Below, piece by piece: positions 1-11,969 of a DNA stretch of 12,702 nt; the first letter of the stretch is position 1; every line of letters begins with the position of its first letter. A model generated the notes under the pieces. That model was not told where the DNA came from. It worked only from the letters and a program-made list of their open reading frames with translations, and did no database searches. The translations under genes were made by a program, and so were the position numbers. This stretch comes from a virus. Taxonomy: Duplodnaviria; Heunggongvirae; Uroviricota; Caudoviricetes. The DNA is taken from IMG/VR virus record IMGVR_UViG_2563366971_000008; one strand, given 5' to 3'.

Positions 1-1698
1 CTATACTTTAAAGAACTTATTTGTCGAAGATAACTCAAGGATCGAGTTACTCATCATCATTTTCATGTCCGCATCTTCTGAAAACTTATCACTTAATATT
101 GACACAATATATTGACCATTTATATTATTTGCTTCAAAAAATATATCTCTAATTTGATTCACATCGACATCTTCAATGCTATCATGAATAACAAAAGTAG
201 GTCTCTTTAATTTAATCTTATCCACAAACTTAATATAAGCCAAATCAAATGCAGTTATTTCACCTTTCTTCTTGCCGCCATTACTGTTTGGTGTAACGCA
301 TGATATATCAAAATTACACTTACCTTTATCAACATCAAAGGAAAGATCAAAAATGTATCTTTCCCCATATATTTCCTTTGTAAGATCACCAAAAAACTCA
401 TTGAAAATCTCGATGTTTTTTTCCAGACCTTGAACTGCTAACTCTATTTCTAAAAGTAATTTCTCTCGACTATCTTCAAGAGATTTTATGAGGGCATTTG
501 TATCATTAATACGCGAAAGATTAGACTCTATGCTAGCAAGATTTTCACGTAATTCAGTAAGCTTATTAAATAATTGATTTATAGACTTTAATGTTTCAGG
601 TTCTTTGATTGTTCTAAATAGGGATGATTCTTGTTCATGAAGATCATTGATTTTTTTATTTACAGTTTCTATTTCTTCTTTTTTCTTTAACAATTCAGAT
701 TCTAAAAAACTGATTTTATTCTTAATAATATCATTATGGAACAATACCATTTCTTCGTAAGTCCTTTTAAGTTCCCCATTAAAATAAATCCCCGCAGAAT
801 TATATATTTCCATTAAATCATTTTCTACAAGTTGTATGATATTATTCTTCAAGGACAAGATCGATTCTTCGATATTTCTTACTCGCATATTTAAGGAGGC
901 ATAGCTCAAAGAATAATCACTGATATTCTTCTGTATTTCTGAAAGCTTTTTTAAGCTTTCATCATGACTATCTTTAAAATCGAAGTTCTTAATATTTCTT
1001 TCCGCCTCTGCAATTTCTTTCTTCAGAGGCTTAATCATTTTTGCTAAAACAGTCTCTCTATTTGGATTCCTGTATGCGGCAAGATATGTCTTTTGTTTTT
1101 TTATCACTTTGTTAAAATCACCTTTTTTCTTTATCAGAGGTAGCCCATTGAACCCAAATAAAAACAAGTATAATAGATCATAGACATCAGGAGTCGTATT
1201 CCCATGTAAGAAATTAAGCGTTTTCTGCATTTTATCATTCGTGTTTCTAATAAATTTATGCGAAACATTCCTCAGTGATGGCTTATCTGTAGTTAACCCA
1301 AACACTGCTTGAGCTATAAATTCAGAATATTGTTTCTTATCTACTTCAACATCATTTAAAAAATATTTTGAATTTTTATCATCAATAGATATTATACGTG
1401 AAATAACTGCCTTTTTATTTTCTACCGTATTGAAATCCAATGAAAATTTCAAAACATTATTATTAATTAACGATACAATTTCAGGTATATCTTTTCCAAA
1501 CTCTGCATCATGATAAATATCATGACCTGATGACATAAATAAATAATCTAAAACACGCGATAATGTGGATTTACCTACACTATTGCCGCTATCTTTGCCT
1601 GATGTTCTTTTATTTACAATTAGATTCAGACCGTCTTTAAACGTCACCTCTCTTACAAGAGAGTCATTTTTTAAAATAATAAGTTTATTGAGCCTCAT
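1..1698 (-). CDS. SMC/ABC-type P-loop ATPase with central coiled coil (565 aa); candidate defence ATPase
   Basis: Complete ORF with ATG at 1698-1696 and stop at 3-1. N-terminus reads like an SMC/RecF head, with Walker A SGNSVGKST around residues 37-45. Residues about 200-440 are K/E/L-rich and heptad-like. C-terminus has a signature-like SNGG and a Walker B-like TFVIHD around residues 501-506. A GGTGGA Shine-Dalgarno sits upstream. Confidence 0.8.
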   Translation of the reverse strand: MRLNKLIILKNDSLVREVTFKDGLNLIVNKRTSGKDSGNSVGKSTLSRVLDYLFMSSGHDIYHDAEFGKDIPEIVSLINNNVLKFSLDFNTVENKKAVISRIISIDDKNSKYFLNDVEVDKKQYSEFIAQAVFGLTTDKPSLRNVSHKFIRNTNDKMQKTLNFLHGNTTPDVYDLLYLFLFGFNGLPLIKKKGDFNKVIKKQKTYLAAYRNPNRETVLAKMIKPLKKEIAEAERNIKNFDFKDSHDESLKKLSEIQKNISDYSLSYASLNMRVRNIEESILSLKNNIIQLVENDLMEIYNSAGIYFNGELKRTYEEMVLFHNDIIKNKISFLESELLKKKEEIETVNKKINDLHEQESSLFRTIKEPETLKSINQLFNKLTELRENLASIESNLSRINDTNALIKSLEDSREKLLLEIELAVQGLEKNIEIFNEFFGDLTKEIYGERYIFDLSFDVDKGKCNFDISCVTPNSNGGKKKGEITAFDLAYIKFVDKIKLKRPTFVIHDSIEDVDVNQIRDIFFEANNINGQYIVSILSDKFSEDADMKMMMSNSILELSSTNKFFKV

Positions 1699-1904
1699 AT
1701 ACTATTCCACCATTTCCATCTAACTCAATTGCGCCGATTATGAAAAGCCAATCTAATTAGTAAAGAAAAAGATCAAACGATAACTCGAAGATAGAATTTA
1801 CTAAATCATACAATCGAGATATTTCAATGACCATTGAATCATTACTTTGAAAGATCCTAAGCACTACACTTCCAATATATACAGGATTTGCTTTTGGATC
1901 CGTA
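1699..1904 (-). promoter_or_regulatory. 206-bp AT-rich spacer inside the cassette with a candidate internal sigma70-like promoter for the ATPase gene
   Basis: On the minus strand, TTTACT, a 17-nt spacer, then ATAATC lies about 30 nt upstream of the ATPase ATG. The gap is unusually long for an operon. This is motif inspection only. Confidence 0.25.
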
Positions 1905-2453
1905 TCAATTGTAATCATTTGGATTCTCCAGCACTATACATTCGATAATAGCATAGCTAACAATCATACGAATGCCATAATCAATATCTTCCTGTAAAAA
2001 CTCTGAATCTAAATTAGAACACGAACTAACTGTTTCTTGAGCAGCTCTAATAACATCATCTATAATATTATCCGAGTTTTTCCTTATGAGTTCAATGTTA
2101 AATGGTTTCTCATAAAGACCATATAATCCCAATGCAGTATTATAATAACCTCTAAACTGTCTTTTCAATTTGACACTACCATTTAAAATTATAGCATCAA
2201 GTGTTTTTATGGATTCATCAACTAGCAGAGCATCTTCTTTATAAAGTTCAGCTACCCATCTGTTTCTTTTAAGATCATTGAATTCTATTTTAACATCAAT
2301 ATTTGATGCTATTCTGTTTAAGTTTTGCTCGCTACCAACTGAATTAGAAATAATTTCAATTAACTTACCAATAACACTGGCTCTTAACATTCTTGGCTGG
2401 TTGTTTATATGCACAGGACCAGTATTATTATTGAAATTAACACCAGAACCCAT
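1905..2453 (-). CDS. hypothetical protein (182 aa), middle gene of the cargo cassette
   Basis: ORF with ATG at 2453-2451, preceded by a GGGGG Shine-Dalgarno formed by the last codons of the upstream gene (stop-TT-ATG coupling). No catalytic motif recognised; few His/Cys. Same strand and AT-rich composition as its neighbours. Confidence 0.7.
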   Translation of the reverse strand: MGSGVNFNNNTGPVHINNQPRMLRASVIGKLIEIISNSVGSEQNLNRIASNIDVKIEFNDLKRNRWVAELYKEDALLVDESIKTLDAIILNGSVKLKRQFRGYYNTALGLYGLYEKPFNIELIRKNSDNIIDDVIRAAQETVSSCSNLDSEFLQEDIDYGIRMIVSYAIIECIVLENPNDYN

Positions 2454-2455
2454 AA

Positions 2456-2728
2456 TTACCCCCGATTATCAATATTCACAGGACCATTATTATCTTGAAA
2501 ATATTGAGAACGCGCTCCTTGATTAATGAAGTTTCTATTAGTTGTAATTTTTACAATCTGGGAATTAAGATCATTTATTGTAATGTTAAGTTGTTTTATC
2601 TCATTATCTTTCTTGGTTACTTGCATAGTCTGATATATTGCTATACATCCAGAGATCACCCCAACAATATATCCAAAGGCACTTACATATTCGTTAGCAA
2701 GTAGTGATGCAATCATTTGGAGCTCCAT
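2456..2728 (-). CDS. small single-pass membrane protein (90 aa; possibly 86 aa from the second ATG at 2716)
   Basis: The ORF carries a hydrophobic stretch VSAFGYIVGVISGCIAIY (about residues 15-32) followed by a charged helical tail. The internal ATG at 2716 has a better Shine-Dalgarno (GGAG, 6-nt spacer) than the first ATG. First gene of the cassette. Confidence 0.6.
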   Translation of the reverse strand: MELQMIASLLANEYVSAFGYIVGVISGCIAIYQTMQVTKKDNEIKQLNITINDLNSQIVKITTNRNFINQGARSQYFQDNNGPVNIDNRG

Positions 2729-7658: not shown

Positions 7659-8624
7659 ATGAAAATGAACGTAACCGCCACCGTCAGCCATGCGCTCGGC
7701 CACTGGCCGCGTATCCTCCCGGCGCTGGGGATTCAGGTGCTGAAAAACCGTCATCAGCCCTGTCCGGTCTGTGGCGGGAGTGACCGCTTCCGTTTTGATG
7801 ACAGGGAGGGGCGCGGCACCTGGTACTGCAATCAGTGTGGTGCCGGTGACGGCCTGAAACTGGTTGAAAAGGTGTTTGGTGTCTCCCCGTCCGACGCGGC
7901 CACAAAGGTGGCTGCCGTGACCGGCAGCCTGCCCCCGGCTGACCCGGCAGTGACGGCCGCCGCCGGTGCTGAAACAGACGCTGCCCGGAAGAACGCCGCC
8001 GCACTGGCACAAACCCTGATGGCGAAAACCCGTCCCGGAACCGGTAACGCCTACCTGACCCGCAAGGGCTTTCCCGGCCGGGAATGCCGGATGCTGACCG
8101 GCACACACAGAGCCGGTGGCGTGAGCTGGCGTGCCGGTGACCTTGTGGTGCCACTGTATGACGACAGCGGCGAACTGGTTAACCTTCAGTTAATCAGTGC
8201 TGACGGCCGTAAGCGCACCCTGAAAGGCGGACAGGTCAGGGGCACCTGTCACACCCTTGAAGGACAGAATCAGGCCGGAAAACGTCTGTGGATAGCGGAG
8301 GGATACGCGACCGCACTTACCGTGCATCACCTGACCGGTGAAACGGTGATGGTGGCGCTTTCTTCCGTGAATCTCCTTTCTCTGGCCAGCCTTGCCCGGC
8401 AGAAGCATCCGGCCTGTCAGATTGTCCTTGCTGCTGACCGTGACCTCAGCGGTGACGGCCAGAAAAAAGCCGCCGCAGCCGCAGATGCGTGTGAAGGTGT
8501 GTTGCCCTGCCGCCGGTCTTCGGTGACTGGAATGATGCCTTCACGCAGTACGGCGGGGAAGCCACCCGTAAGGCCATTTATGATGCCATCCGGCCACCGG
8601 CTGAAAGCCCGTTCGACACCATGA
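7659..8624 (+). CDS. alpha: alpha primase-helicase, N-terminal fragment (zinc-binding primase/TOPRIM part), interrupted by a frameshift
   Basis: AAGGAGA Shine-Dalgarno. CPVCGG...CNQCG zinc motif, then EGYATA and AADRD TOPRIM-like motifs. After about residue 280 the translation becomes Arg/Pro/Ser-rich nonsense, while the protein-like sequence continues in another frame. Confidence 0.8.
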   Translation: MKMNVTATVSHALGHWPRILPALGIQVLKNRHQPCPVCGGSDRFRFDDREGRGTWYCNQCGAGDGLKLVEKVFGVSPSDAATKVAAVTGSLPPADPAVTAAAGAETDAARKNAAALAQTLMAKTRPGTGNAYLTRKGFPGRECRMLTGTHRAGGVSWRAGDLVVPLYDDSGELVNLQLISADGRKRTLKGGQVRGTCHTLEGQNQAGKRLWIAEGYATALTVHHLTGETVMVALSSVNLLSLASLARQKHPACQIVLAADRDLSGDGQKKAAAAADACEGVLPCRRSSVTGMMPSRSTAGKPPVRPFMMPSGHRLKARSTP

Positions 8625-9991
8625 GCGAAGCGGAGTTTTCCGCCATGAGTACCAGCGAAAAGGCCATGCGTATCTATGAGCATTACGGCGAGGCGCTCGC
8701 GGTTGATGCCAACGGCCAGCTTCTGTCCCGTTATGAAAATGGTGTCTGGAAGGTGCTGCCACCACAGGACTTTGCCCGGGATGTGGCCGGGCTGTTTCAG
8801 CGGCTGCGCGCGCCGTTCTCCTCCGGGAAGGTGGCCTCCGTGGTGGACACCCTGAAGCTGATTATTCCGCAGCAGGAAGCCCCCTCCCGCCGCCTGATTG
8901 GCTTTCGTAACGGCGTGCTCGACACGCAGAACGGCACGTTCCACCCGCACAGTCCGTCACACTGGATGCGCACCCTGTGCGATGTGGATTTCACCCCACC
9001 GGTGGAAGGGGAAACGCTGGAAACCCACGCCCCCGCGTTCTGGCGCTGGCTTGACCGTGCCGCCGGTGGCCGTGCGGAAAAACGCGACGTGATTCTGGCC
9101 GCACTGTTTATGGTGCTGGCAAACCGCTATGACTGGCAGCTCTTTCTGGAGGTGACCGGTCCCGGCGGCAGCGGCAAAAGTATCATGGCCGAAATAGCCA
9201 CCCTGCTGGCCGGGGAGGATAACGCCACGTCGGCCACCATTGAGACGCTGGAATCCCCGCGTGAACGTGCCGCGTTAACTGGCTTCTCACTGATACGCCT
9301 GCCGGACCAGGAAAAATGGAGCGGCGACGGTGCCGGACTCAAGGCCATCACCGGCGGCGATGCGGTGTCCGTGGACCCGAAATACCGGGATGCGTACTCC
9401 ACGCATATCCCGGCGGTGATTCTGGCCGTGAACAATAACCCGATGCGCTTCACCGACCGCAGCGGCGGCGTGTCACGCCGGCGGGTGATTATTCACTTCC
9501 CGGAACAGATAGCCCCGCAGGAGCGCGACCCGCAGCTTAAGGACAAAATCACCCGCGAGCTGGCGGTCATCGTGCGTCACCTGATGCAGAAGTTCAGCGA
9601 CCCGATGCTCGCCCGGTCACTGCTTCAGTCCCAGCAGAACTCAGACGAGGCACTGAACATCAAACGGGATGCCGACCCGACGTTTGATTTTATCGGCTAT
9701 CTGGAAACCCTGCCGCAGACCAGCGGCATGTATATGGGGAACGCCAGTATCATCCCGCGTAACTACCGTAAATACCTCTATCACGCCTATCTGGCCTACA
9801 TGGAGGCAAACGGCTACCGGAATGTACTCAGTCTGAAAATGTTCGGGCTGGGGCTGCCGGTGATGCTGAAGGAATACGGGCTGAATTACGAGAAGCGCCA
9901 TACCAAACAGGGGATACAGACCAACCTGACGCTGAAAGAGGAAAGCTACGGCGACTGGCTGCCAAAATGTGACGACCCTGCAACAACCTGA
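8495..9991 (+). CDS. alpha: alpha primase-helicase, C-terminal fragment (helicase with Walker A GPGGSGKS, plus C-terminal DNA-binding part)
   Basis: This frame is open from 8495 (first ATG at 8621) and reads VALPPVFGDWNDAFTQYGGEATRKAIYDAIRPP before the listed ORF. The two fragments sum to 777 aa, the length of P4 alpha. Confidence 0.8.
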   Translation, partial: RCVALPPVFGDWNDAFTQYGGEATRKAIYDAIRPPAESPFDTMSEAEFSAMSTSEKAMRIYEHYGEALAVDANGQLLSRYENGVWKVLPPQDFARDVAGLFQRLRAPFSSGKVASVVDTLKLIIPQQEAPSRRLIGFRNGVLDTQNGTFHPHSPSHWMRTLCDVDFTPPVEGETLETHAPAFWRWLDRAAGGRAEKRDVILAALFMVLANRYDWQLFLEVTGPGGSGKSIMAEIATLLAGEDNATSATIETLESPRERAALTGFSLIRLPDQEKWSGDGAGLKAITGGDAVSVDPKYRDAYSTHIPAVILAVNNNPMRFTDRSGGVSRRRVIIHFPEQIAPQERDPQLKDKITRELAVIVRHLMQKFSDPMLARSLLQSQQNSDEALNIKRDADPTFDFIGYLETLPQTSGMYMGNASIIPRNYRKYLYHAYLAYMEANGYRNVLSLKMFGLGLPVMLKEYGLNYEKRHTKQGIQTNLTLKEESYGDWLPKCDDPATT

Positions 9992-10142: not shown

Positions 10143-10438
10143 GTTCTTTCGAAAAAAAATTTTTTTCCTGTACGATATAGCATCAATCCAAGTAAAAATG
10201 CGCTTTCATTTCACATTAACTTACAGCCATTGGTATACGATTAGGTATACGCACAAAAACTGAATTAAATAAAATCGTTAAAAATCAAAGCGATACAATA
10301 TTTATTCAAACTCCGCCAGCACGGTGTAAGGACTACACCAACAAAAACAGGAAGTTATAAGTCTCAGAAGGACACCGACCAGACGGTGAGGAGACAAAAA
10401 AGGATACGCAACGGAGTCGCGACTCCCTATGACATTAA

Positions 10439-10462
10439 AGCCCGCTGATGCGGGCTTTTTTA
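10439..10462 (+). terminator. rho-independent terminator in the satellite/host junction region
   Basis: AGCCCGC, loop TGAT, GCGGGCT, then TTTTTTATT. It is preceded by a perfect 14-bp palindrome GGAGTCGCGACTCC at 10413-10426. Confidence 0.5.
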
Positions 10463-10892
10463 TTGGTCCTGACCCGCCCTGAATAGAATTCATCCAATTA
10501 CAGTCCAGACATATACAGTATCCCTCAGCTCAGTATCAGCTTCTCGACAAATGGTCACTGTTATTTACCCGTTGCCAGAAAGAGAATAATTTGCCCCCAT
10601 AGCCAGCCTTCCCGGAATCTGTATATTCATTAATATTGTTATCGATTCCATCAAGTAACATAGGTTGGATGCGATTGATCTTACTCACATTAGTCGACAC
10701 GGAACTCAGTAAGTTGAACTCTGGAAAAGCAGTTTAAATAGCATTTAAACAAATGCCACCAGTTCGAAAAAGAGTATAAGCACACTTAATATATTGTTTT
10801 AATTATTCATTTCCTTTCAACCCAATTCTTATCCCTCACATTATTTGTTATTAATTTGTTGTTTTTGATCACAATAAGAAAACAATATGTAA

Positions 10893-11969
<1,077 letters not shown>

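Follow-up and report, generated by a model that had tools for sequence, protein, structure and literature searches.

The window analysed here, a 12,702 nucleotide (nt) stretch of the IMG/VR virus record IMGVR_UViG_2563366971_000008, is a P4-like satellite island, and the operon at its left end is a four-gene variant of the ABC-3C/Lamassu type lying in a P4-like satellite hotspot. On the minus strand this operon encodes, in order, a small transmembrane (TM) protein of 90 amino acids (aa), a stand-alone CTD10-like protein of 182 aa, the middle component MC6 and a DUF2326 ABC ATPase. The C-terminal tail of the TM protein and the N-terminal head of the CTD10-like protein share a short motif, and pairs of this kind recur, in widely different sequences, throughout the relatives of the operon. 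We incline to the view that the motif would couple a minimal TM effector to a CTD10 adaptor without a covalent bond, with an in-register beta assembly, formed upon CTD10 oligomerisation, clustering the TM helices and breaching the membrane. Of the options offered by a preliminary description of this DNA, the shared interaction motif is the favoured one, given the purifying selection acting on both copies at the peptide level and the co-variation between subfamilies.

Matched peptides at the adjoining ends of two genes

The tail copy of the motif, FQDNNGPVNIDNR, occupies 2462..2500 on the minus strand and forms residues 77-89 of the 90 aa protein; it is part of a longer conserved tail of 21 aa, QGARSQYFQDNNGPVNIDNRG (2459-2521, minus strand). 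The head copy, FNNNTGPVHINNQ (2397..2435, minus strand), forms residues 7-19 of the 182 aa protein and is N-terminal to its CTD10-like domain. The upstream open reading frame (ORF) ends ...SQYFQDNNGPVNIDNRG-TAA (over a longer stretch, ...RSQYFQDNNGPVNIDNRG-TAA), which is followed by TT and then by the ATG of the downstream ORF, the start of which is MGSGVNFNNNTGPVHINNQ. The preliminary description had reported a 13 aa motif shared by these two termini across a stop-TT-ATG junction, and the coordinates, residues and junction are all confirmed. Its claim of an imperfect direct DNA repeat is likewise borne out: positions 2407-2437 and 2472-2502 (plus strand) are identical at 25 of 31 sites with an offset of 65 nt. 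This is the top-ranked repeat family of the left 3 kb, and no other pair of 31-mers set 20-300 nt apart within bases 1-2900 matches better; over 200 dinucleotide-preserving shuffles the highest score was 24, short of 25/31. The six-frame translation of the entire 12.7-kb window contains the pattern N.G[PSA][VI].[IV] at the two motif sites and nowhere else.

Both copies are maintained in close homologues. The 182 aa family comprises 96 cluster representatives, nearly all exactly 182 aa long, down to 40% identity, and every one keeps the head M-x-x-G-V-x-F-x-x-N-x-G-P-V-x-I, with F7, N10, G12 and P13 conserved. The tail, ..QGEKSQYFQ[DE]N[NS]G[PS]VNIDNRG, hardly varies across 22 homologues and 17 genome loci, and is the most conserved segment of the TM protein. 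Alignment of homologous cassettes finds the genes split and both motif copies present in 17/17 other species-level genome loci (39-91% identity), the TM tail being followed by the head 1-5 nt later. These loci range from Enterobacterales to Vibrio and include Tatumella, Photorhabdus, Marinobacterium, Pseudoalteromonas, Microbulbifer, Crenothrix and Methylophilaceae; neither among them nor among the 96 heads was there a homologue with otherwise conserved genes that lacked the motif, the observation that the preliminary description had named as pointing to a coincidence. This conservation is the strongest evidence against a chance match. At the Siccibacter colletis locus (L004), a frameshift interrupts the TM gene upstream of 4001, leaving the tail and the downstream gene intact. 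A profile search with the conserved tail for other classes of effector, which was of limited sensitivity, returned only small TM proteins.

The synonymous sites of the two copies were also compared. Where the copies share an amino acid the same codon is used at 66 of 120 positions, against 67.0 expected from codon usage; in the remote subfamilies discussed below the figures are 71 of 164 and 87.8. There is no signal of DNA-level homogenisation, recent duplication or gene conversion at synonymous codons, and therefore selection acts on the peptide; the DNA repeat is thus a by-product of coding for the same peptide in an AT-rich gene. Recent duplication of the DNA and gene conversion are ruled out by these tests. 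The suggestion in the preliminary description that the repeat is the footprint of a duplication stands only in so far as the motif may have had such an origin in the remote past, but any DNA-level signal of it is gone. The deficit of shared codons at the remote loci (L019-L054) is roughly z = -2.6, a value computed over phylogenetically non-independent loci, and might be a weak hint of selection against DNA repeats that can delete the junction.

Co-variation and composition across the wider family

An exhaustive phmmer search found approximately 90 further stand-alone relatives of the 182 aa protein, 170-215 aa in length and 24-32% identical to it, the N-termini of which carry Asn/Gly-rich motifs of various kinds. 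Loci were retrieved from a narrower subgroup of these remote relatives, and have the same TM-CTD10-MC6-DUF2326 layout, with the TM protein a separate gene in all of them. At least five or six distinct motif classes were seen; although the classes differ greatly, the remote TM tails resemble the heads of their own partners. Alongside the pair in the window (TM tail FQDNNGPVNIDN, partner head FNNNTGPVHINN), the tails and heads are IENNGENSGIITGMNNGNINM and LENKGENNGIFIGENHGEINM in L022, NKQSIKGDDNQQAGGDIKN and NKQNIKGNNNQQAGGNITN in L023, ISGDNNRQAGRDI and INGDGNNQAGGDL in L051, NGSTGYQAQNMTV and NGSNGYQAEKMWV in L053, NHGVMNIDN and NYGIVNIGN in L052, and NIQNRDIVGD and NQVNIRDIKGN, in a shifted register, in L054. 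When 12 tails were scored against 12 heads by the best ungapped BLOSUM62 match, the own-partner scores summed to 572, compared with a mean of 319 (sd 42) over 100,000 permutations, none of which reached 572. This own-partner matching argues that the tail and head pairs evolve in concert at the peptide level.

Some of the remote loci have features of their own. On two gut-metagenome contigs the four-gene system (L020, 166-1446; L022, 408-2377) immediately follows a phage holin/amidase lysis cassette, and that of L022 also adjoins an Abi_2 gene; these gut-contig versions appear to ride on prophages or phages. Among 50 remote CTD10-like proteins, five also match CTD11 and one matches the phage T4 Gp5 C-terminal repeat model (E=0.0014). 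In gut-type motifs glycine recurs with a period of 4 or 8 residues, a pattern that calls to mind intertwined beta-helix repeats.

Compared with the remainder of the proteins, the heads and tails contain more G (3.4-4.7x), N (2.6-3.0x) and Q (about 2x) and less L (0.13-0.34x) and K (0.56-0.80x), with V and I not enriched. A bias towards N, G and Q (with V and I) and away from K, P and L is reported for the amyloid signalling motifs of bacteria and fungi (Dyrka et al., 10.1101/2020.01.06.895854), which were screened for as a sequence at the C-terminus of an effector that recurs at the N-terminus of an adjacent collinear gene, separated by <=10 bp or overlapping (10.1101/2020.01.06.895854). The pair described here has this genomic signature, in its position at the termini, the collinearity of the genes, their tiny spacing or overlap and the existence of all-in-one relatives.

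Four to five relatives are longer than the stand-alone form. P0190, P0210 and P0212 consist of an HNH nuclease followed by CTD10 (CTD10 2e-13; PADLOC PDC-M68A 1.3e-29), and P0203 of SMEK_N followed by a CTD10-like domain. The all-in-one operons have three genes, encoding effector-CTD10, MC6 and DUF2326, with neither the TM gene nor the Asn/Gly motif. Hence one clade contains both fused effectors that lack the motif and split TM effectors that have the motif pair. The 97 aa gene upstream at L055 encodes no hydrophobic segment and no Asn/Gly motif, and by eye looks like a small regulator.

Proposed coupling of effector and adaptor, and the alternatives

ABC-3C belongs to the same superfamily as Lamassu and DdmABC (PMC10586767). 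In Lamassu, the effector LmuA joins an enzymatic domain to a C-terminal domain (CTD) in one polypeptide; the CTD is sequestered by LmuC and a dimer of LmuB, and when liberated assembles into a cyclic oligomer (10.1101/2025.03.14.643221). The 182 aa protein (1905..2453, minus strand) appears to correspond to this C-terminal docking and oligomerisation domain of LmuA-type effectors, and has no fused effector domain: only a 27-residue N-terminal extension, containing the motif, precedes a CTD10-like domain that starts at about residue 28. Its own score against PF20275 CTD10 is 18.1 bits, under the cut-off of 28.1; the model is matched by 28/47 close and 41/50 remote relatives, at best with 1.4e-12. 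The presumed effector is the small single-pass membrane protein upstream (2456..2728, minus strand; 90 aa from the ATG at 2728, or 86 aa from the RefSeq start at 2716), laid out as an N-terminal TM helix, a short coiled-coil-like linker and the conserved tail. The preliminary description's assignment of it as a membrane protein is reasonable, as it has one hydrophobic segment (residues 14-32, Kyte-Doolittle 19-residue mean 1.73). A Lys-rich stretch follows this TM helix, which argues for a cytoplasmic location of the tail.

The architecture, the conservation, the co-variation, the selection at the peptide level, the compositional bias and the motif-less all-in-one fusions are observed; from them we infer contact between tail and head, assembly of a beta or amyloid-like kind, triggering by CTD10 oligomerisation and damage to the membrane. 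The tail and head, as a pair of Asn/Gly-rich beta-forming peptides, would stand in for the covalent link between effector and CTD, a connection probably like that made by amyloid signalling motifs. Once the sensor was triggered, the CTD10 proteins would be released and oligomerise, bringing their N-terminal heads side by side, where they could nucleate an in-register parallel beta assembly (cross-beta or beta-solenoid-like). This would recruit or template the cytoplasmic tails of the TM peptides, such that the TM helices cluster, the integrity of the membrane is lost and the infected cell dies. In-register parallel stacking is suggested because the partners are similar rather than merely complementary, and oligomerisation of the kind undergone by Lamassu CTDs would supply the nucleation step by placing the heads side by side, as oligomerisation of NLRs does.

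Several observations weigh against this coupling model. Described amyloid signalling motifs are depleted in proline and about 21-25 residues long; in the window-type motif a Pro (GPV) is conserved, and the shared core extends to only 12-13 residues. The presumed effector is a bare TM peptide with no refolding globular domain of the HeLo/Bell type, and oligomerisation of CTD10 is extrapolated from a CTD7 LmuA. The pair at L024 matches weakly, and the co-variation as a whole would fit templating, a constitutive complex or the binding of both peptides to one co-evolving third site. A single-sequence AlphaFold2 model had a pLDDT of 33.6, too low to use. In the window itself, a nonsense codon in the MC6 gene (TCA>TAA at 1757-1759, minus strand, relative to strain ABW_A19, which has an intact MC6 in its operon at NZ_CP067307 3651293-3654008) shortens the product from 77 to 53 aa, given which the defence operon of this particular lineage may be inactive.

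In a stronger version of the coupling model, prion-like templating would be the way in which the alarm is passed on throughout the CTD10/MC6/DUF2326 clade of the Lamassu family, whose members occur in settings as different as P4-like satellites of E. coli and gut-phage contigs. CTD10 adaptors, once oligomerised, would act as seeds for a cross-beta fold; this fold would propagate into the tails of the minimal TM peptides, which would then kill the cell. This is offered tentatively, as possible but rather doubtful. If true, it would be the first amyloid signalling under the control of an SMC-like ATPase, and the orthogonal, co-evolving motif classes would be private 'wires' between sensor and effector.

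The main rival is a constitutive tether, which seems on the whole unlikely, though it must be taken seriously. Tail and head would be permanently joined in a hetero-oligomeric beta structure, whether a small sheet or a beta-helix intertwined in the manner of the phage T4 gp5C octad repeats. The TM peptide would in effect be a non-covalent N-terminal 'domain' of the CTD10 protein, and activation would consist of the ordinary Lamassu liberation and oligomerisation of the whole unit, with no templating step. The same conservation and co-variation data fit this arrangement, as would the glycine periodicity of the remote subfamilies and the match of one member to the Gp5_C repeat model. It is also consistent with P0003, a 248 aa metagenomic ORF on a single 1398-bp ENA contig, which is an exact in-frame fusion at the repeat (...GPVNID on the one side, NQPR... 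on the other) and provides a natural case of a covalent link, with a single copy of the motif, that gives an open reading frame. However, stable heteromeric interfaces require complementarity of the partners and not similarity of their sequences; the long retention of the split would be unexplained were the parts always joined; and the all-in-one relatives carry other effectors, the one contig encoding P0003 being the only case seen of a fused TM/CTD10-like form.

Another candidate, which we think improbable, is that the peptides do not meet at all, and instead dock in equivalent sites of a common, symmetric partner, such as the protomers of the ABC ATPase dimer or MC6. In Lamassu the LmuB dimer contacts both the effector CTD and LmuC (10.1101/2025.03.14.643221), and co-variation between subfamilies could equally follow a co-evolving receptor site. 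The N/G/Q-rich, Leu-poor and repetitive composition of the peptides, however, is typical of self-stacking beta motifs and not of docking peptides.

It is very unlikely that the copies are an evolutionary scar, the functionless leftovers of an out-of-frame tandem duplication of ~65 nt that split an ancestral TM-CTD10 fusion. Canonical ABC-3C effectors are indeed fusions, and a 65-nt deletion between the repeats restores a single in-frame ORF: when simulated in the window it gives the same product as P0003, the one such ORF found in nature. Against this stand the strong purifying selection on both copies across the Proteobacteria, with the tail the best-conserved part of the TM protein, the wide divergence of motif classes between subfamilies that are nevertheless matched within pairs, and the lack of residual DNA identity beyond that required for coding. 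P0003 itself may have arisen by deletion between the copies or be an assembly artefact, and would be a one-off either way.

The preliminary description had further proposed that the two ORFs could be joined or separated by slippage or recombination at the repeat. Fusion is physically feasible, as the correspondence between P0003 and the 65-nt deletion attests, but as a function the proposal is not supported: the genes are split in all 28 E. coli genomes and all 17 other species, and neither the reading frame nor the G5 run at the junction is conserved. The junction (2451..2464, minus strand) consists in the window of the Arg-Gly codons CGGGGG (2459-2464), the stop TAA (2456-2458), the spacer TT (2454-2455) and the ATG (2451-2453). 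The last two codons of the TM gene, encoding Arg-Gly or, in two loci, Arg-Asp, read [AC]G[AG]G[GA] 5-9 nt before the ATG in 18/18 loci (the window and L002-L018). They would act as a Shine-Dalgarno-like element for the downstream gene, and the invariant terminal Arg-Gly may be constrained by this role as well as by that in the protein. Enterobacterial loci alone have the G5 run; the lineages without it have AGAGGC, CGAGGC, AGGGAT or similar sequences. Between stop and ATG there are 1, 2, 4 or 5 nt, depending on the lineage, and in the remote loci the genes overlap by 4-14 nt; over all loci examined, the spacing is 1-8 nt or the overlap 4-14 nt, and therefore there is no conserved frame relation between the two ORFs.

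A genetic switch, in which the repeat or junction would toggle the operon between split and fused forms through recombination, slippage or programmed frameshifting, is exceedingly unlikely in the light of these comparisons. The existence of the fused contig is in its favour, as is the sequence CGG GGG TAA in the window, where tRNA-Gly, if it slipped by -1 at the stop codon, would lead into the downstream frame. A frameshift or slippage site is rejected, however, because the junction varies whilst only [AC]G[AG]G[GA] stays constant, and a programmed -1 frameshift on CGG GGG TAA is specifically ruled out by the lack of conservation of the G run, missing from most lineages, and of the frame offset. 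No heterogeneity of the junction was found in the 28 E. coli genomes, all of which have it intact at 211 nt, and the synonymous sites of the copies are not kept alike, being if anything less alike than expected in the remote subfamilies. In NZ_CM132655.1 (E. coli mip270_22, hit H43) the junction spans 212 nt, the 1-nt insertion being either real or a sequencing error, and a single 'hypothetical protein' is annotated under the region.

A chance resemblance between two low-complexity coding segments of an AT-rich, Asn-rich region (the cargo operon has 30% G+C, against 55% for the backbone) can be given next to no weight in view of the shuffling result, the restriction of the motif to two sites in the six-frame translation and its conservation in every homologue examined, which by itself already refutes this explanation.

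The operon in its satellite and among known systems

The 90 aa protein has weak DivIC/FtsL-like coiled-coil matches in a profile search, and its single weak match in PADLOC and PHROGs is to a PHROG of unknown function; neither the 182 aa protein nor MC6 was matched by any PADLOC or PHROGs model. Both the TM gene and the 182 aa gene are labelled 'hypothetical protein' in RefSeq. A sequence search of solved structures with the family profile gave no meaningful match, and a simple promoter scan upstream of the TM gene found nothing convincing on the minus strand. Downstream lies the MC6 gene (1685..1918, minus strand; 77 aa in sister strains), which RefSeq names 'ABC-three component system middle component 6' in the sister strains; the truncated copy of the window matches PF20293 MC6 with E=0.012. 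MC6 is unannotated in the strains identical to the window (N17, N24, N39, N64 and N47). The fourth gene (1..1698, minus strand) encodes a 565 aa DUF2326 SMC-like ABC ATPase, the LmuB-equivalent sensor, with matches to PF10088 DUF2326 (1.2e-17), PADLOC PDC-M68B (1.4e-45) and LmuB (2.7e-15), and weakly to AAA_21/SMC_N.

Genes resembling Psu, Delta and Sid lie to the right of the operon, and in sister strains an integrase and ssrA are directly to its left. Its position is the P4-like satellite hotspot between int and psu, and its putative role is protection against phages or plasmids. The operon is present at >=99% identity in 28/5426 complete E. coli genomes, and is chromosomal every time; no relative of the 182 aa protein was found in the phage and plasmid collections searched. 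Elsewhere in the window, the P4 alpha-type primase/helicase region (7659-9991, plus strand) reads as two ORFs, of 321 aa (7659-8624) and 456 aa (8621-9991); the odd-looking C-terminal tail of the first suggests a frameshift and a decaying satellite. A stretch of 38% G+C (10301-10990) between the right end of the satellite and glaH/lhgO (10992 onward) probably contains the boundary of the island or the remnant of an attachment site.

A close parallel to the motif pair is Bab/Agp, an abortive infection system of E. coli in which amyloid templating from a sensor other than an NLR activates a 109 aa protein that has a hydrophobic helix at its N-terminus (10.1101/2024.11.07.622273). As in Bab/Agp (E. 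coli ECOR25, BASS11; Ibarlosa et al.), the two genes are collinear neighbours within a defence island of E. coli, one encoding a small protein with an N-terminal hydrophobic helix and a C-terminal motif, the other a protein on the side of a non-NLR sensor with the same motif at its N-terminus. Here, however, the motif partner, a 182 aa CTD10-like adaptor, belongs to a three-part complex with an SMC-like ATPase, and the presumed effector consists of no more than a TM helix and a linker; amyloid formation, proven for Bab/Agp, is here a prediction, and the likeness is drawn from the architecture. With HET-S/NWD2, the fungal FASS and BASS1-10 with their Bell-domain effectors (Dyrka et al. 2020) the pair shares the genomic signature and length class of the motif. 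Like NLR-associated motifs more generally, it is N/G/Q-enriched and L/K-depleted, with tiny spacing or overlap and coexisting two-gene and all-in-one forms; it differs in that the sensor is not a NACHT/NB-ARC NLR, in the conserved proline of the window-type motif, and in its hosts, which are unicellular Proteobacteria and Firmicutes-type gut or phage contigs instead of multicellular Actinobacteria and Cyanobacteria. The ATPase family, MC6, the CTD10 class and the gene order are those of Lamassu/ABC-3C/DdmABC and of PADLOC PDC-M68 (HNH-CTD10 and DUF2326). The canonical effector of these systems is one polypeptide, whereas here there are four genes, with a stand-alone CTD10 and a separate TM peptide of 47-122 aa that is linked to it only through the matched tail and head.

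No link of amyloid signalling with ABC-3C or Lamassu was found in the literature searched, a body that did not include the founding ABC-3C paper (Krishnan et al. 2020, NAR), and DUF2326 is barely mentioned in the literature searched. The operon would thus be a Lamassu-family system with a split effector, a form that may have been noted before, and its motif pair one of the amyloid-signalling type on a new class of sensor, with a mechanism proposed from comparison of sequences. The proposal would also give a function to two genes that RefSeq lists as encoding hypothetical proteins, and is directly testable in E. coli.

Lamassu systems are found in about 10% of prokaryotic genomes, and their effectors are thought to be activated by the liberation and oligomerisation of one fused polypeptide. 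If the coupling model is correct, the effector link in Lamassu can be non-covalent, and nature has provided, in the several distinct motif classes, a set of coupling peptides that are orthogonal to one another. Amyloid-type signalling, so far associated with NLRs and one TPR-PIN protein, would then extend to SMC-like sensors in unicellular bacteria, phages and satellites.

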